Part shown: positions 531 through 7,133 of the stretch, in pieces
Numbering within the stretch: position 1 is the stretch's first letter
Layout of the letters: each line of letters begins with the position of its first letter
Virus genome (UHGV): UHGV-1488776
Origin: a virus
DNA: 64,000 nt
Direction: 5' to 3' (one strand)
Translations under genes and position numbers: made by a program
Notes under the pieces: generated by a model
The model's input: only the letters and a program-made list of their open reading frames with translations
The model's database searches: none
Told to the model about the DNA's origin: nothing

Positions 531-2950
531 AAGAGCTGTGCTATGGATCTGTTTGCAGTGGAATTGAAGCCGCGAGTATTGCCTGGGAACCGTTGGGTAT
601 GCGTCCGGCGTGGTTTGCTGAAATCGAGCCTTTTCCATCTGCCGTTCTTGCGCACCGCTGGCCCCATGTCGCCAACCTTGGCGACATGACAAAACTTGCC
701 AAAAAAGTCCTGGCTGGGGAAATCGAATCCCCTGATGTGCTCGTCGGGGGTACGCCTTGTCAGGCATTCAGTATCGCGGGCTTACGTGGTGGGCTTGATG
801 ATGAACGCGGCGCGCTAACTTTGAAGTATGTGGAGCTTGCAAATGCAATTGACGACAAACGGTCTGAGTCCTTCCTCAAACCGACAGTTATCGTCTGGGA
901 AAATGTCCCAGGAGTCCTGTCATCGGCAGATAACGCCTTCGGATGTTTCCTTGCCGGATTGGCTGGAGAAGATGCGCCATTTGAACCAGGTGATCGACCT
1001 GAATCAGGAAAAAGTAACGCGTTCTGGCGGTGGGATGGCAAAACCGGTTGCCATGCTCCAAAGTGGCCGCAGTGTGGTTGTATTTATGGACCGCAGCGAA
1101 AGGTGGCCTGGAGAATCCTTGATGCCCAATACTTCGGAGTGGCACAACGACGCCGACGCGTGTTTGTTGTCGCAAGTGCTCGAACAGACCTCGATCCCGC
1201 AACGGTACTTTTTGAGTTCGAAGGCGTGCGCCGGGATATTGCGCCGAGCAGAGGCGAGGGGAAGGAAGTTGCCGGAAATGTTGGAAATGGCATTAAAAGC
1301 GGGAGCCATTGGGATAACCCTGTAAATCCTCACCCGACACTTAACCAGTCACACAATACTGGTGGGATTGGTGCAAGTAACCAAGAGATTTTTGCGCAGC
1401 GAGGCAGCGGACTTGTGTATTGCATGGCGCATGGGCAAGGGGGGGCAGAAATAAAAAATGATGGGACATCACCTACTCTTACTTGTAATCATGAAGCTCC
1501 AATTGTGTTTTCTTGCAAGAAAGCTATTGCGTTTACAAGCAAAAATTATGGGCAGGATGCGGGTGTTGAGATTTCCCCAACTTTACGAGCTGGTAACTCT
1601 GCTAATAGCAATCAAAACGCGGGATGCCCACCAGCTGTTGCGTATTCGCTACAACATGCACAAATTGGGCGAAAAGATGATGCTGGACCGCAGGGTAAAG
1701 GGTGGCAAAAAGAGATAAGTTTTACTCTTGATTCCCGCGCAACAGCTGACGCCGTTGCGTTATCTTTTTGGGGGCAGGAAAGTATTGAAAAAGGCGAATT
1801 AGGTGAGAATGGTTACTTACCTCATATGATGAGCGTTCGCCGTCTGACTCCTGTCGAATGTGAAAGGCTGCAAGGTTTTCCTGATGGACATACGTTGATT
1901 CCAACGGGAAAGCGTAAGAAAGTTACTTCAGATGAACTTATATACCTTCGCAATCACGATCCTGATTTAAGTGAAGAAGAGGCCGCCATGCTTGCAGCTG
2001 ACGGACCTCGTTACAAAGCGATCGGCAATAGTATGGCGATACCAGTAATGCGCTGGATTGGCGAGCGGATTACCAAGGCTGCATGTCGGCAGAAAGAAGG
2101 AAGTGAAACAAAAGAGCGAAAAGTTAAACCAGCGGCAGAATTCGAACGGTCCATATTCAAATGGGCTGGTGGAAAATTTGGTGTTCTGGAACAAATCTTT
2201 CGCTATTTGCCAGAAGGGAAGCGCCTGATTGAACCTTTCGTTGGTGGCGGAGCTGTCTTCATGAATGCCGGATACCAGGAAAATCTGCTAAATGATGTGA
2301 ATGCTGACCTGATTAACTTTTACAAGACTCTGCAACGCGAGGCGCATTCACTTATCACTCTGGCACATCGTTTCTTCCAGGACTACAACACGCAGGAAGG
2401 ATACCTGGCAGTACGGAATGCGTTTAACAAACAAGTCTATGATGATTTACATCGCGCAGCGGCGTTTTTGTTCCTGAACCGACATTGTTTTAACGGATTG
2501 ACGCGTTACAACCAAGCCGGTGAGTTCAATGTCGGTTATGGGAAGTATAAAACTCCGTATTTCCCATTGCAGGAGATGGAAGCCTTCCTTGGTGCGGAAG
2601 GGCGTTCTGAGTTTGTATGTGGTGATTTTGCTGCGGTGATTGAAGCTGCCGGAGAAGGAGATGTCATCTTTTGCGATCCGCCGTATGAACCGCTCCCAAA
2701 TACAGAGGGATTCACGAACTATTCCGGTCATGACTTTAAGTTTGAAGAGCAAAAACGCCTGGTGTCTCTGTTGACGGATGCTCATCGCCGAGGTGCAAAG
2801 GTTCTCATTACTAACAGTGGCGCGCCAAACATCAGAGAACTTTATCAGGACAGTGGCTTCAGAGTGGAACCTCTTTTTGCCAGACGTTCTGTGTCTTGTA
2901 AGGGGGGCTCTCGAGGTGTTGCTCATGACGTTATAGCAATATTGCTCTAA
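527..2950 (+). CDS. dmt: bifunctional DNA methyltransferase (N-terminal C5-cytosine MTase, C-terminal Dam-like N6-adenine MTase)
   Basis: 807 aa; N-terminal GTPCQAFS (PCQ motif) and WENVPG (ENV motif); C-terminal FKWAGGK and DPPYEP Dam motifs; position upstream of tRNAs and ban as in P1. Confidence 0.85.
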
Positions 2951-2957
2951 TAAATTT
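2941..2957. promoter_or_regulatory. C1 repressor operator, 17/17 match to ATTGCTCTAATAAATTT, with overlapping inverted partial site to 2968
   Basis: Exact consensus 17-mer overlapping the dmt stop codon; likely the operator of the tRNA-ban operon (Op72-like). Confidence 0.7.
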
Positions 2958-3134
2958 ATTAGTGTAATATCGCCTCAATGAATCGTGATTTATAGAGCGA
3001 TTTAGCTGTTAGCCGCGACAGGCGCGGCGGCAAGTATGGCGGGGTAGTGACTCCTTCCCCATCATGACGCCGAGTTGCCAGGTTGACCATACGCCTAAGT
3101 GGCAACACCGAAGTGCGTTACGAGCTTCCAGTTT

Positions 3135-3160
3135 GCCCATCTTCGGGTGGGCGTTTTTTT
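3135..3160 (+). terminator. rho-independent terminator-like hairpin
   Basis: GCCCAT-cttcgg-GTGGGC stem-loop followed by GTTTTTTT. Confidence 0.5.
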
Positions 3161-3342
3161 CAGGGTTTTCGTCATGGTTAGCGACTTTGCGGCGGTTTAG
3201 AAACTGACCATTAAAGTAAATGCAAACGATGATCTGATGATGGTAGCGGCCTAAGAAGCCAGACGCCACGGGGTATGAGTCGTCCCCCGTCAAAAAATCG
3301 ACCGCAGAGTGTCCCCGTCTGTGTATTAGGGAACGGGGAGGC

Positions 3343-3417
3343 ACAACAGGTAAGGGCGCTGGTGTGATTAACCAGATGAACGAGAAGGGGCCATCTGTTG
3401 GTCAGCGTCCTTTCCTG
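3343..3417. repeat. long imperfect hairpin repeat, unit 0 (AACAGGTAAGGG ... CCTTTCCTGTTG)
   Basis: 5' arm cacaacaggtaagggcgctg and 3' arm cagcgtcctttcctgttg are near-complementary; same arm sequence as units downstream of the tRNAs. Confidence 0.5.
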
Positions 3418-3625
3418 TTGCGTCTTCTTTTCAGCGTAACAGCGGTGCTTAACAGCACTTTGGGTACAGTTCCACGAATTTACGGGTATATCCCGTCATG
3501 CTGAAGGCGCTAATCACGCTGGAAGCCAGGGTTGTGCATCCCCTGTTACCGAATTGCAGCCAGGGCGCGGTGCGCCGAAAAGCATACGGAGGTGGAAGCC
3601 CTCGCCGGAGACGTACCCGGCAAGT

Positions 3626-3701
3626 GATGGTGTAGCTCAGCGGTTAGAGCGGTTGACTGTTAATCAACGGGTCGATGGTTCAAATCCATCCACCATCGCC
3701 A
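3626..3701 (+). tRNA. trnA: tRNA-Asn (anticodon GTT)
   Basis: Hand-folded cloverleaf: acceptor GATGGTG/CACCATC, D-arm GCTC/GAGC, anticodon loop CTGTTAA, T-loop TTCAAAT, 3' CCA encoded. Confidence 0.85.
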
Positions 3702-3703
3702 AT

Positions 3704-3779
3704 GCCGGTTTAGCTCAGTTGGTAGAGCGCCTGCCTTGTAAGCAGGATGTCAGCGGTTCGAGTCCGTTAATCGGCACCA
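3704..3779 (+). tRNA. trnT: tRNA-Thr (anticodon TGT)
   Basis: Hand-folded cloverleaf: acceptor GCCGGTT/AATCGGC, anticodon loop CTTGTAA, T-loop TTCGAGT, CCA encoded; 2 nt after tRNA-Asn. Confidence 0.85.
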
Positions 3780-3781
3780 GC

Positions 3782-3890
3782 ACAACAGGTAAGGGTATTT
3801 TGCGACGTCGGAGATCGCCGAGCTTGGCAGAGGGTTCGAATCCCTACGAAGTACCCTTACCGTTGTGATGAATGCGCAGGCTGATGCGCG
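3782..3890. repeat. long hairpin repeat unit A with GTGATGAATGC tail; loop holds a T-arm-like GGTTCGAATCC
   Basis: Arms acaacaggtaagggta / tacccttaccgttgtg, then gtgatgaatgcgcaggctgatgcgcg. Confidence 0.5.
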
Positions 3891-3992
3891 AAAGACATTG
3901 CAGCTATTGCGGAAAAGAGCTGTTCGGCGGGGCAATTAAACGCCCGTGAGAGTCTGAAATAACCGCAAGCCGGAGATCAGCACCGGTCATCA

Positions 3993-4072
3993 CAACACAA
4001 CAGGTAAGGGCATTCTCCCTTATGGGGCTTGGCTTAAATGCATCGAGTGCTCTTACCGTTGTGATGAAGTGC
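3993..4072. repeat. long hairpin repeat unit B
   Basis: Arms caacaggtaagggcattctc / gagtgctcttaccgttgtg, then gtgatgaagtgc. Confidence 0.45.
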
Positions 4073-4203
4073 AGCTCTTTGAAGCAACCAGAAGATAAGC
4101 ATCTGGCTTCACAACATAAACCGCAGGAACGACCAATAAACGGTAGTCCGTATGGAGAACACCCCGTTGAGGAAGAGGCCTGGCCGGAACCGTAACCGGC
4201 ACT

Positions 4204-4320
4204 ACAACGTTGAGAACACTGGCGTAACGGGGTCATATCCCAATCTACGAATAAATGTTGCGTTGCAGCGTGACAACCAGTGTTCTCAACATTGTGGTGA
4301 ATGCACAGGCTGATGTGCCG
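4204..4320. repeat. long hairpin repeat unit C (about 18-bp stem)
   Basis: Arms caacgttgagaacactgg / ccagtgttctcaacattg (17/18 complementary); loop contains taacggggtcatatcccaatctac; tail gtggtgaatgcacaggctgatgtgccgc. Confidence 0.5.
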
Positions 4321-4482
4321 CAACTACAGTAGTGCGCGCTTTGCGGGGCTTGCTACAACCCTGTGTCGGAGTTCAGCACCGACCATCACAGTTTGATTCT
4401 CTGGCATGAGCATAACGCTGAAATAAGTCCAGCCTGGTGCGGCCCGATCACCCGCCGTTAGCTCCACGAAACGGAGCACGTA

Positions 4483-4584
4483 ACAGGTAAGAGCATTCTC
4501 CTGTAACGGGTTCATATCCCAATCTACAGGTCCACCAAGAATGCTCTTTCCGTTGCGGTGAATGCGGCTAAGCGCACGCGGGGA
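4483..4584. repeat. long hairpin repeat unit D
   Basis: Arms aacaggtaagagcattct / agaatgctctttccgttg; loop shares taacgggttcatatcccaatctac with unit C; tail gcggtgaatgcggctaagcgcacg. Confidence 0.5.
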
Positions 4585-4707
4585 AATGGTTATATCAGTC
4601 CATTCATTTCTCCTTGTTTCCCCGTCCACGGTGGATAACCAGCCAAAGGACACCGGGAGGCACCCGGCACCGCAACCTTATTTCCCAACCAGTAATGAGG
4701 TTAATAA

Positions 4708-5133
4708 ATGCTCGGTATTCTCAAAAAGAAATTCCGCAAAGCGGCTGGCGGAGTCAAGAAGATGGAAAACCGTGATGCGGTGGAAGCGACTGTCTGGGGC
4801 GCATATTCCATTGCATACTCTGACGGCACCTGCGATGCGAAAGAAATTGCAGTATTGGAAAAAACCATTGCAGCACTTCCTGCCTTTGCGCCGTTCTCCG
4901 GTGAAATTGCCCAGATGAGCGCCAATATTCGCGCTCAATATGAAGCCTCGCCGCGCCGAGCGAATGCCCAGGCTTTACGTGAACTGGCTGACGTGTCTGG
5001 AACTAATGATGCGGTAGATGTTCTGTGCCTATGCATTGATATTGCTGACCAGGATGGCATTGGGGCAGAAGAGCAGGAGCAATTGAAGAAAATTGCCCAG
5101 GCTCTTCAATTGCCACTGGAACAGTATATCTGA
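4708..5133 (+). CDS. tciA: TerB-like (tellurite-resistance family) protein
   Basis: 141 aa, acidic, TerB-like composition; position between tRNA genes upstream of ban matches P1 tciA; true start may be internal. Confidence 0.55.
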   Translation: MLGILKKKFRKAAGGVKKMENRDAVEATVWGAYSIAYSDGTCDAKEIAVLEKTIAALPAFAPFSGEIAQMSANIRAQYEASPRRANAQALRELADVSGTNDAVDVLCLCIDIADQDGIGAEEQEQLKKIAQALQLPLEQYI

Positions 5134-5297
5134 TGGTTATAAAAGCACGTCTAATTCTGGCTTTGGTTTTTCTCGTGCTATCTGTGCTGGTGGATTTCAC
5201 CAGCACAATCCTGTCGGTTTTATCCGACGGGGCGTTGGTAGCAGTAGCTGTAACATTGGTATGGCCGATATTTAAACCAGCCTCGAAGGATCAGTGA
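5133..5297 (+). CDS. small membrane protein (54 aa)
   Basis: ATG overlaps tciA stop (ATGA); hydrophobic MVIKARLILALVFLVLSVLV...; positionally P1 tciB-like. Confidence 0.4.
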   Translation: MVIKARLILALVFLVLSVLVDFTSTILSVLSDGALVAVAVTLVWPIFKPASKDQ

Positions 5298-5404
5298 TGA
5301 GCTTCTGGGATTTTGCAGATAAGTATCCAATTGTTCTCATTATCATTGTTGCCATAGTTGTAGGCGGTATTGTTAGCGCCATTGAAGCACTTAGGAAACA
5401 GTAA
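5297..5404 (+). CDS. small membrane protein (35 aa)
   Basis: ATG overlaps upstream stop; MSFWDFADKYPIVLIIIVAIVVGGIVSAIEALRKQ; positionally P1 tciC-like. Confidence 0.35.
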   Translation: MSFWDFADKYPIVLIIIVAIVVGGIVSAIEALRKQ

Positions 5405-5407
5405 TCC

Positions 5408-5483
5408 GGCCCTTTAGCTCAGTGGTTAGAGCTGGCGACTCATAATCGCACGGTCACCGGTTCAAGTCCGGTAGGGGCCACCA
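5408..5483 (+). tRNA. trnI: tRNA-Ile (anticodon CAT, ileX/lysidine type)
   Basis: Hand-folded cloverleaf: acceptor GGCCCTT/AGGGGCC, anticodon loop CTCATAA, T-loop TTCAAGT, CCA encoded; body resembles E. coli ileX rather than Met tRNAs. Confidence 0.75.
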
Positions 5484-5768
5484 TATTTGGTTGTAACACG
5501 GCGTCTGGCACATGCGTCGTTAGCGGTCTGGTGACGTTAAAGGGGTTACCTTTTCCCCTAGCTCAGGCAACAAACCAGGTAGCCGAAATGTGCAAGTCAC
5601 CGTTGGAGGGATAGCGGATACAGGGACTCACCATCCTGGCGATTCGGTGTGACAGCCGGGAAGAGTCCGGCGCATTAATCCTGATTTTCTGGTGATGACT
5701 CATATCGTTAGGAGTGATTTGAGTATGCCGATTATATCTGACATTCAGCACGCCTGGGTGGAGTGCTA

Positions 5769-7133
5769 ATGTCTGCATCCCCTCTTGAATCCATGCCAAA
5801 TTCCCTTAGTGCAGAACAAGCTGTACTTGGTGGCTTAATGCTTGATAACTGCCGCTGGGATGAAGTTGCAGATCGTATAGTTGCTGATGATTTTTATACC
5901 AGTGCTCATCGTGAAATTTTCAGTGAGATGGAGAGGTTATTAAGTCATGGCAAACCGATTGATTTGATAACACTTGCTGAAGCACTTGAACAGAACGGTA
6001 AATTAGAACGCGCCGGTGGTTTTGCGTACCTTGCGGAGATGTCAAAGAACACGCCCAGCGCGGCAAATATTTGTGCTTATGCGGATATCGTTCGTGAACG
6101 CGCGGTTGTTCGTGAAATGATTTCCGTCGCAAATGAAATAGCTGAAGCTGGATATGCGCAGGATGGCCGGGGCAGCAATGAATTGCTGGATATGGCCGAA
6201 CGCCGCGTTTTTGAAATAGCTGAAAAACGACAAAAGAGCGGTAGTGGTCCAAAAGATATCGCCAGCATTCTCGATGCAACGGTATCTCGCATAGAAGAGT
6301 TGTTTCAGCGACCGCATGATGGTGTAACGGGACTTGATACCGGATTTACCGATCTCAATAAGAAGACGGCAGGGCTTCAGTCGTCCGATCTCATCATTGT
6401 CGCCGCCCGCCCATCTATGGGGAAGACCACGTTTGCGATGAATCTCGTCGAAAATGCCGCAGTTCGTAACGATAAGCCCGTATTGGTTTTTAGCCTTGAG
6501 ATGCCGAGCCACCAGCTGATGATGCGCTCACTGGCTTCTCTTGCACGCGTTGATCAGACTCGTATTCGGACAGGGCAACTTAACGACGAGGATTGGGCGC
6601 GGGTTTCTGGCGCAATGGGTATTCTGTTGGACAAGCAGAATATTTTTATTGATGACTCAAGCGCCCTGACACCTACAGAGCTTCGTTCCCGCGCTCGTCG
6701 TGTTTATAAAGAAAATGGTGGTTTGAGCATGATTATGATCGACTACCTGCAACTTATGCGCGTCCCCGAGCTGCAAGATAACCGAACGCTGGAAATTGCC
6801 GAGATTTCTCGCTCACTGAAGGCGTTGGCGAAGGAATTACAAGTACCGGTGGTGGCATTGTCACAACTTAATCGATCGCTTGAACAGCGTGCGGACAAAC
6901 GACCGGTAAATTCAGATTTACGTGAATCAGGAGCAATTGAGCAGGACGCAGACCTGATCATGTTTCTGTATCGCGACGAAGTTTATCACCCGGATAGCGA
7001 AATGAAGGGCATTGCCGAGGTAATTATCGGAAAGCAACGAAATGGCCCAATTGGCACGGTGAGATTGGCTTTTAACGGCCAATACTCACGGTTTGATAAC
7101 TATGCTGGTGCTGACTGGCAAGAGGATTATTAA
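5769..7133 (+). CDS. ban: replicative DNA helicase, DnaB family
   Basis: DnaB N-terminal domain (AVLGGLMLDN) and RecA-like core with Walker A RPSMGKTTFAMN; 454 aa from the ATG at 5769. Confidence 0.9.
   Translation: MSASPLESMPNSLSAEQAVLGGLMLDNCRWDEVADRIVADDFYTSAHREIFSEMERLLSHGKPIDLITLAEALEQNGKLERAGGFAYLAEMSKNTPSAANICAYADIVRERAVVREMISVANEIAEAGYAQDGRGSNELLDMAERRVFEIAEKRQKSGSGPKDIASILDATVSRIEELFQRPHDGVTGLDTGFTDLNKKTAGLQSSDLIIVAARPSMGKTTFAMNLVENAAVRNDKPVLVFSLEMPSHQLMMRSLASLARVDQTRIRTGQLNDEDWARVSGAMGILLDKQNIFIDDSSALTPTELRSRARRVYKENGGLSMIMIDYLQLMRVPELQDNRTLEIAEISRSLKALAKELQVPVVALSQLNRSLEQRADKRPVNSDLRESGAIEQDADLIMFLYRDEVYHPDSEMKGIAEVIIGKQRNGPIGTVRLAFNGQYSRFDNYAGADWQEDY

Follow-up and report, generated by a model that had tools for sequence, protein, structure and literature searches.

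A window of 64,000 nucleotides of the virus genome UHGV-1488776 (the whole stretch of DNA that was analysed, to which all coordinates refer unless another sequence is named) belongs to a P1-like phage and contains five long hairpins, hereafter called units U, A, B, C and D, which lie around a tRNA-Asn/tRNA-Thr pair. The hairpins occupy a coding-free stretch from the C1-controlled ban promoter to tciA. The analyses showed that the units are structured, that their stems are conserved with covariation, that they belong to the plus strand and that they hold a constant position at the borders of RNA modules. On balance, we consider it probable that they serve as RNase III 'punctuation' of a polycistronic non-coding and tRNA transcript, a reading based on homology to one mapped cleavage site together with structure, covariation and position.

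Three things are apparently undescribed: the hairpin family, the modular architecture that it shows in widely differing phages, and its connection with a tag RNA resembling transfer-messenger RNA (tmRNA). The literature that was searched, the P1 genome paper not being part of it, contained nothing on these hairpins, on a tmRNA-like RNA of P1 or on P1 transcript ends. Phage hairpins processed by RNase III are a known kind of element; the present family is new as far as we could determine. The result is a conserved modular RNA architecture common to hundreds of temperate and virulent enterobacterial phages, which offers an explanation of how tRNAs of phages and small RNAs of prophages (DicF, STnc100-type) could be cut out of long transcripts, and of how modules move between phages by recombination inside the common arms.

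The hairpin units and their conservation

The initial annotation had placed one hairpin upstream and four downstream of the tRNA pair, and all five were recovered there from the sequence and by the repeat search, each on the plus strand. Unit U (~3342-3422), with the basal stem CACAACAGGUAAGGGCGCUGG / CCAGCGUCCUUUCCUGUUG, lies directly after the tmRNA-like tag module described below. Unit A (3780-3869) starts 1 nt past the CCA of tRNA-Thr and consists of a 21-bp stem and a top with a small hairpin and a T-arm-like GGGUUCGAAUCCC; the T-arm-like element GGGTTCGAATCCC reported earlier for this unit is indeed present. Unit B spans 3995-4066. Unit C (4200-4300) has a stem of 23 bp topped by a three-way junction whose loop, GUAACGGGGUCAUAUCCCAAUCUAC, is conserved, and unit D (4479-4558) joins a basal stem of the U/A/B class to an apical loop of the unit C type. 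The repeat search found the 5′ arm GCACAACAGGTAAGGG in three exact or near-exact copies, at 3341, 3780 and 3995, and the 3′ arm with its tail, CTTACCGTTGTGATGAATGC, in four copies, at 3856, 4052, 4285 and 4546 (62-100% identity). It also recovered inverted repeats for units A, C and D, the arms of unit C being 23 nt long and 91% complementary. The long stems foreseen in the initial annotation were borne out by folding: all units fold at -32 to -49 kcal/mol, with z scores against mononucleotide shuffles of -4.0 (U), -5.0 (A), -6.3 (B), -8.1 (C) and -6.2 (D). The predicted stems are 18-23 bp long in all five units, close to the two helical turns of double strand that E. coli RNase III substrates have.

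The units had been regarded as one five-member family with common arms. This holds for the basal stem of U, A, B and D, but not for unit C, whose stem sequence is different. The family is better described as two overlapping classes: U, A, B and D have a ~20-bp basal stem (CACAACAGGUAAGRGC / GCUCUUWCCGUUGUG) and variable tops, while C and D have the three-way-junction top, so that unit D carries both features. The loop segment said to be common to C and D was found as a 25-nt repeat with two copies, at 4224 and 4503 (96% identity).

An exact-pattern scan for the C/D loop motif gave matches in at least 120 IMG/VR contigs. In lambdoid and P1-like phages the surroundings of the motif fold alike, into a basal stem of ~20 bp, an inner hairpin bearing the motif and a second, variable hairpin, and the stem sequences of this class are quite different between phages despite the common fold. 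RNAalifold analysis of 20 diverse representatives yielded 28 pairs, 19 of which showed compensatory double changes; 92% of the cells were paired, against 41-54% when the partners were slid, and none of 500 shuffles reached the observed value. The covariance model built from this alignment, R1, comprises a ~17-bp stem, the inner hairpin ACGGG-NUCAUAN-CCCAAUC and the second variable hairpin. On the plus strand it scored unit C at 58.8 bits and unit D at 58.6 bits (E ~7e-16; both belong to the seed alignment) and unit B at 20.4 bits, and the R1 search did not find units U and A. On the minus strand C and D scored 20-22 bits, more than 35 bits below the plus strand; this asymmetry and the frequent U·G pairs identify the plus-strand RNA as the structured molecule.

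The basal stem of the other class was aligned for 26 stems from unrelated phages and the Qin prophage (alignment A4; the AACAGGUAAG-class 20-bp stem CACAAC(A)GG(U)AAGRGCAUUG / CAGUGCYCUU(U)CCGUUGUG). Units U, A, B and D align in it without gaps except at the bulge, and a conserved A bulge, a U·U mismatch and a U·G wobble, all specific to the plus strand, recur. In A4 95% of the cells are paired against 35-54% with slid partners, a percentage inflated by the location of the arms through folding, and 12 of the 20 pairs changed on both sides, a count that is not so affected; again 0 of 500 shuffles reached the observed value, and the alignment is convincing by eye. Stems of the U/A/B/D type occur in many unrelated phages, below tops of 30-90 nt that have nothing in common.

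The suggestion that the units form a structured-RNA family is therefore upheld by covariation in both classes, neither of which is matched by a family of Rfam 15. Within 2900-5800, at E values up to 10, the Rfam scan gave only tRNAs, a sub-threshold STnc100, weak tmRNA and chance microRNA hits, and a scan of phage mEp460 found nothing. In the lambdoid phages a unit of the C/D type lies between the terminator of a DicF-like small RNA and the first open reading frame (ORF) of the operon, and a related unit precedes a domain of the type found between A and B in the window.

The virulent Ackermannviridae Klebsiella phage K751 (L010 1500-4800) and Salmonella phage Vi01 (L132) have a stretch of ~3.3 kb free of coding sequences. 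Its modules follow the order of the P1 ban leader: tag module, AACAGGUAAG hairpin, inter-unit domain, T-arm-like element, CAU-loop hairpin, STnc100-like domain and tRNA-Met(CAT).

The Qin homologue and probable RNase III processing

Of the three readings that had been offered for the hairpins, RNase III processing is the best supported, by way of a homologous hairpin in Qin, a prophage carried by E. coli K-12; for the P1 units themselves the support is one of homology. The Qin hairpin (L008 2173-2258; 5′ arm CCAUAACGCGAAAGCGCAUGG, 3′ arm CCGUGCGCUUCCGGUUGUGG) aligns to the stems of the units and matches R1 with 17.8 bits (E 6.6e-5). A 190-nt species of DicF depends on RNase III and is lost in an rnc mutant (Faubladier et al. 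1990; Ragunathan et al., bioRxiv 10.1101/2023.04.14.536235); its 5′ end lies between positions 813 and 814. The 5′ end of the 53-nt DicF corresponds to L008 2383, and since both RNAs have the same 3′ end, the 190-nt species starts 137 nt upstream, which puts the cut at L008 2245|2246 (GUGCG|CUUCC), halfway along the hairpin's 3′ arm.

A rule reported for RNase III in vivo holds that the positions enclosed by the staggered cuts are base-paired, with a G-C among the pairs (PMC6212723). Qin has C-G and G-C as the two pairs that would lie between its cuts, and the family consensus has A-U and G-C, which fits this rule. At the position transferred from Qin, the pairs in units U, A, B and D would be A-U and G-C, or G·U or G-C plus G-C. 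The 3′-arm cuts predicted in this way fall at 3409|3410 in unit U, 3855|3856 in A, 4051|4052 in B and 4545|4546 in D.

The Qin site and the P1 units are alike in the homologous long hairpin, in its basal-stem consensus (CAUAACGCGAAAGCGCAUGG / CCGUGCGCUUCCGGUUGUG), in the polycistronic phage transcript and in the small-RNA neighbours, and the P1 leader at ~3025-3110 is by eye homologous to the Qin sequence that follows the hairpin. Unlike the units, the Qin hairpin is present in a single copy, is not associated with tRNAs, has a degenerate top (GGUUCAUAGAU) and has never been described as a member of a repeat family.

In the mechanism that we propose, one long, mostly non-coding plus-strand transcript would begin at the C1-controlled ban promoter, cross the tag module, the tRNA pair and the inter-unit domains, and extend to tciABC, tRNA-Ile/Met(CAU) and ban. 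The host RNase III would have the ~20-bp basal stems as its substrates. Staggered cleavage at mid-stem would free the tRNA pair, leaving past the CCA of tRNA-Thr a short 3′ trailer for trimming by exonucleases, and would turn the inter-unit domains and the tag RNA into individual molecules. As all units have the same arm sequence, the stem remainders of neighbouring units can pair: the 3′ arm of one unit, once freed, may anneal to the 5′ arm of the next and form a terminal helix that closes the excised module. Cleavage of the P1 units and the positions of the cuts are predicted from the Qin site, and the re-pairing is proposed from the sequence only.

Related arrangements are known from other systems. 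In the early mRNA of phage T7, and in the N-leader and sib of lambda, related stem-loops between functional units are cut by the host RNase III. The units resemble them in being repeated stem-loops, related to one another, that stand between the functional parts of a long phage transcript. In T7 and lambda the parts so separated are protein-coding cistrons, and internal loops are present where the cut falls, whereas the units separate tRNAs and non-coding modules, have hypervariable tops and possess arms able to re-pair between neighbours. In bacterial rRNA operons, inverted sequences around a stable RNA form the RNase III substrate, and tRNAs are released from the same precursor. The bracketing of stable RNA by inverted sequences and the release of tRNAs from one precursor are likenesses to the present array; the rRNA stems are long-range only, while the units are local hairpins or, as we infer, stems that may enclose modules. 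The Correia elements of Neisseria are transcribed inverted repeats with variable cores which form RNase III-sensitive hairpins, and they are dispersed, mobile and found in either orientation. They share with the units the repeated inverted-repeat design, the variable cores and the RNase III-sensitive hairpins, but the units keep a fixed position and orientation in a conserved module order.

Several points weigh against RNase III punctuation as the function of the units. The link to the enzyme comes from one mapped homologue, that of Qin, whose match to R1 is weak. An RNase III site needs neither a conserved stem sequence nor the three-way junction with the CAU loop of the C/D class, and these features make an additional sequence-specific function or partner likely. 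The intrinsic terminator at 3134-3160 sits upstream of the entire array, so that expression of the whole array from the ban promoter needs read-through or an unrecognised promoter. In Salmonella phage SJ46 (L007 2554-2636) and in L083 (3791-3873) the 5′ half of unit C is joined in the common loop to the 3′ half of unit D, and the arms of this hybrid no longer pair; the hybrid represents a deletion by recombination between the repeats, which means that individual units are dispensable. The inflation of the paired percentage in A4, mentioned above, belongs here as well.

The tmRNA-like tag module and the tops of the units

The tag module (3165..3341, plus strand) consists of the 5′ motif GUUUUCGU, a region like the first tmRNA pseudoknot (PK1-like), the tag frame, a hairpin loop with the stop codon, a PK2-like pseudoknot and a further hairpin. 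The tag frame at 3222-3254 reads GCA AAC GAT GAT CTG ATG ATG GTA GCG GCC TAA and would encode ANDDLMMVAA, which is close to the E. coli ssrA tag, ANDENYALAA. Homologous DNA was found in 333 GenBank phage records, which include P1-like phages, Vi01-like Ackermannviridae, N4-like Schitoviridae and small siphoviruses, the last infecting Escherichia, Salmonella, Klebsiella, Cronobacter, Serratia and Aeromonas. The pattern that defines the tag was present in only 4 of 185,579 species-representative bacterial genomes, which identifies the tag module as a phage element.

The tag frame is under clear constraint. Its length is exactly 10 codons in all 133 copies, with 16 peptide variants in 30 nucleotide versions, synonymous ones included, and the other two frames of the same copies vary from 2 to 31 codons. 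Except for one tag ending in AP, all of them match AN[DE][DEN]xx[LM]x[AV]A*, and the similarity among the homologues stops at the stop codon. The UAAAU before the GCA resume codon matches the consensus of the Rfam permuted tmRNA model, the stop codon occupies a hairpin loop, pseudoknot-like folds lie to either side, and the downstream pseudoknot covaries in both of its stems (e.g., CCGA/UCGG, CCAG/CUGG and CCAA/UUGG). Conventional translation of the tag was considered and rejected, as there is an in-frame TAG 8 codons upstream and no conserved start codon.

The neighbourhood of the tag module was counted in 61 non-redundant contexts. On the 5′ side 27 of them have a 3′ arm of a unit and 14 have a sigma-70 promoter; the promoter TTGACA-17-TAGATT lies just 5′ of the module in phages C1 and pIS4-A. 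On the 3′ side a 5′ arm of a unit is present in 48 of the 61 contexts, in 37 at +100 to +130, and unit U is thus the unit that normally follows a tag module. The tRNAs downstream of the module lie on the same strand in 44 of 44 cases.

The module shares with tmRNA, especially with the two-piece permuted form (RF04321), the GCA after UAAAU, the 10-codon AND...AA tag, the stop codon in a hairpin loop and the flanking pseudoknots. It differs in being ~190 nt long and in lacking a tRNA-like domain, an alanine identity pair and a CCA end, with Rfam scores of 20-24 bits against 47 and no tmRNA call by ARAGORN. ARAGORN in tmRNA mode, a scan for the T-arm motif and a search for the reverse complement of the 5′ end plus CCA gave no tRNA-like domain for the tag RNA. 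Neither G3·U70 nor another alanine identity element was present in any candidate stem, nor was an encoded CCA end, and the Rfam tmRNA models (threshold 47) matched the tag region only, with 14-24 bits. In Ackermannviridae a tRNA-like minihelix is seen ~209 nt 5′ of the tag; it is not called by ARAGORN and has no G3·U70. A survey of tmRNA genes from 2014 lists no enterobacterial phage (PMC4131195), and our literature searches returned no description of the tag RNA.

It is possible, though we hold it as a tentative and rather doubtful proposal, that the units are the maturation and end-forming elements of an unrecognised, phage-specific tmRNA-like system, in which RNase III, cutting in the flanking units, would free a tag RNA of ~190 nt used in infection to re-programme or hijack the trans-translation tagging of the host. 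The tRNAs and the tRNA-shaped domains would then be released along with the tag RNA, and the tRNA-like function would be supplied in trans or by the tops of the units. The users of such a system would be as different as P1, Vi01-like and N4-like phages and small siphoviruses. If the tag RNA functions, it would represent a new phage route to the manipulation of ribosome rescue and protein tagging.

The tops of the units have tRNA-like features of their own. The core of the C/D top is GGG-CUCAUAA-CCC in lambdoid phages (e.g., L003 3215-3250) and GGG-KUCAUAU-CCC in P1; in the window the loops at 4224-4248 and 4503-4527 have the form GGG-NUCAUAN-CCC. GGG-CUCAUAA-CCC equals the anticodon arm of the E. 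coli initiator tRNA, with its three G-C pairs, U33, CAU and A37. The one independent loop variant, that of L155, retains CUCAU on a compensated GGA/UCC stem. The C/D loop might thus mimic an initiator or CAU anticodon stem-loop. The search pattern imposed most of the CAU-loop motif, so its conservation is partly one of ascertainment and counts here as a lead rather than a result; when R1 was run again, over the tag-module loci, nearly all the copies that came back were P1-like. A reading of the C/D loop as a T-loop was rejected, as positions 54 and 58 do not fit it and the anticodon-loop reading (U33, CAU, A37, variable 32/38) is better. The tops of the unit A type carry a D-loop-like UUGGYAGAG fused to a canonical T-arm.

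These tops allow a reading in which the units and the flanking domains are themselves parts of a phage tmRNA-like machine, the tops or the arm-derived terminal helices giving it tRNA-like or ribosome-binding functions. The adjacency of tag module and unit in most contexts would fit such a machine, as would a tag frame under clear coding constraint that has no adjacent tRNA-like domain, the D-loop-like and T-arm elements of the unit A-type tops and the CAU loop kept with compensation in L155. The missing alanine identity element and encoded CCA speak against it, and so does phage C1, in which the unit top at the tag module has no tRNA-like motif and no tRNA follows within 1.8 kb downstream. Moreover, the tops are hypervariable, and lambdoid phages have units of the C/D type but no tag module. 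We regard this reading as unlikely.

Module exchange and the ban leader

The tail that had been described as shared by the units is complete (GTGRTGAATGCRCAGGCTGATG) after units A and C only; the versions after B and D have diverged. The repeat search and the folds showed that it lies outside the hairpins and forms the 5′ part of separate inter-unit domains, which are closed by stems of the GUUGUGAUGA...UCAUCACAAC type. Domain A-B (3856..3998, plus strand, as are the domains below) has a cloverleaf-shaped fold with the closing stem GUUGUGAUGA (3862-3871) / UCAUCACAAC (3987-3996), which covaries in mEp460 (GUUGUGGUGA/UCACCACAAC). Domain B-C (4058..4114) is closed by GUUGUGA..UCACAAC and contains the hairpin CCAGA-AGAUAAGCA-UCUGG, and domain C-D (4291..4391) is closed by UUGUGGUGA/CCAUCACAG and contains the GCACAGGCUGAUGUGC hairpin. 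GCGCA/UGCGC in domain A-B is replaced by GCACA/UGUGC in C-D, a compensatory change, and across the domain copies the loop AGAUNAGCA is flanked by the compensatory stems CCGG/CCGG, GUCGG/CCGAC and CCAGA/UCUGG.

The last domain (4552..4676) is closed by GUUGCGGUG/CACCGCAAC and ends 31 nt 5′ of the tciA start codon. It matches positions 31-147 of the 206 positions of the Rfam model RF02076 (STnc100) with 37.8 bits (E 5.3e-6; gathering score 47), and it is a relative of STnc100 that we do not call a member. The closest known counterparts are the prophage small RNAs STnc100 and PasD; with STnc100 the domain has its closing stem, UGGUGAAU...CACCA, and its hairpin, CACCGGGAGGCACCCGG, in common. The differences are the sub-threshold score, the lack of a match in the other inter-unit domains and the fact that STnc100 is not described as flanked by hairpins; it has been described as a prophage-encoded small RNA located downstream of stx2. 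A similar domain is seen by eye in Qin, directly 5′ of the dicB start codon (L008 2450-2596). The two positions suggest that the first ORF downstream of the RNA array has a 5′ leader element that is conserved.

Comparison with relatives showed that the whole region is mosaic. Phage JL22 matches the segment 2950-4720 with 98.3% identity, and the P1 reference matches 91% of the segment's length with 97.9% identity. The alignment to the P1 and P7 references, which the initial annotation had proposed, was run: the window is ~197 nt longer than the P1 reference, the difference being domain A-B and unit B, and the P1 reference carries a fusion of units A and B exactly inside the common 3′ arm. The P1 reference lacks the 143-nt block 3856-3998, for which identity with lambdoid phages (mEp460, IME207 and Stx2 phages) is 96-99%, which indicates a recent exchange of the module between unrelated phage groups. 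The lambdoid counterpart of the block lies in the leftward operon, downstream of a cI-like repressor and upstream of a DicF-like small RNA. The predicted cut in unit A coincides with the start of the block at 3856, as would be expected if modules are swapped by recombination within the common arms.

Such exchanges could also mean that the units are palindromic miniature repeats or recombination hot spots acting at the level of DNA, with no RNA function. Apart from the A/B fusion in the P1 reference, the C/D hybrid in SJ46 and the gains of tRNA-Ser in P7 and D6, this reading would account for the identity of 3856-3998 with the lambdoid phages (98%) beginning at the arm. It is highly unlikely, given the strand-specific G·U and U·U pairs, the plus-strand preference of R1 of more than 35 bits, the compensatory changes in the stems and the cleavage of the Qin homologue as RNA. 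In all the contexts examined, besides, the units point the same way as the tRNAs and the tag module, and recombination at repeated arms is an expected by-product rather than an alternative function. Sites like the attC of integrons were considered as well and rejected, the arm ends CACAAC/GTTGTG not fitting RYYYAAC/GTTRRRY when read directly.

The tRNAs of the window, tRNA-Asn(GTT) at 3626-3701 and tRNA-Thr(TGT) at 3704-3779, both on the plus strand between units U and A, were called by ARAGORN and scored 74.5 and 72.9 bits with the Rfam tRNA model. Relatives carry additional tRNAs in the same interval: tRNA-Ser(TGA) between units C and D in P7 (L006 2777-2863) and D6 (L004 2607-2693), and tRNA-Tyr(GTA) between tRNA-Asn and tRNA-Thr in Ro157c2YLVW (L005 2254-2340). 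The tRNA-Ser is unannotated in the P7 record. The unit directly after the CCA of tRNA-Thr is A in P1 and the window, B in P7, C-type in L027, L080 and L082 and D-type in L112. Some unit thus adjoins this CCA irrespective of which modules a P1-like phage contains, a placing that speaks for a role in processing.

These real extra tRNAs, the T-arm-like element in unit A and the anticodon-like loop in C and D are what could be said for the earlier suggestion that the units are decayed tRNA genes from a once larger cluster. We give it very little credence: neither ARAGORN nor the Rfam tRNA model (RF00005) had a hit in any unit at E values up to 10, and the conserved 20-bp stem, which is found in no tRNA, covaries and frames unrelated tops in dozens of phages.

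The coordinates of the surrounding features were taken from the annotated P1 record and from tRNA and ORF calls on the window. The dmt gene ends at 2950, and the C1-controlled ban promoter/operator (Pban/Oban) of the P1 reference annotation overlaps its end. The 'dicF-like region' of the same annotation (~3065-3166) is closed by the intrinsic terminator found in the terminator scan (3134..3160, plus strand), which lies between the ban promoter/operator and the RNA array. The start codon of tciA is at 4708, a tRNA with the anticodon CAT lies at 5408-5483 and ban starts at 5763. A scan of 2850-5800 called no sigma-70-like promoter between 3160 and 5800, just past the ban start, and no further terminator on the plus strand after 3160 up to 5800; the units thus appear to lie within one transcription unit.

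It is extremely improbable that the units are attenuators, terminators or put-like antiterminator RNAs, or that they code on the minus strand for Plp and Upl. No unit is followed by a U-tract, no terminator-like site was called on the plus strand inside the array, and HK022, which carries put, has no R1 match in 20000-40751 at E values up to 1; the placing of the lambdoid C/D-type unit after an intrinsic terminator and before the first ORF of the leftward operon would suit a role in transcription. The minus-strand ORFs 3904-4323 and 4324-4653 of the window correspond to plp and upl of the P1 reference annotation and run antisense through the units. Their products have no Pfam match, and the C-terminus of the plp-like frame shifts with the module content, in agreement with the initial annotation, which saw no credible protein across the units; plp and upl are probably not genes. 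In the classic model phage P1, ~1.5 kb of the ban operon leader has been annotated only with the 'dicF-like region', two tRNAs and two doubtful ORFs.

The 'dicF-like region' of P1 (3025-3160) is by eye homologous not to DicF itself but to the Qin segment between the RNase III hairpin and dicF, and its strong intrinsic terminator lies directly 5′ of the tag module.

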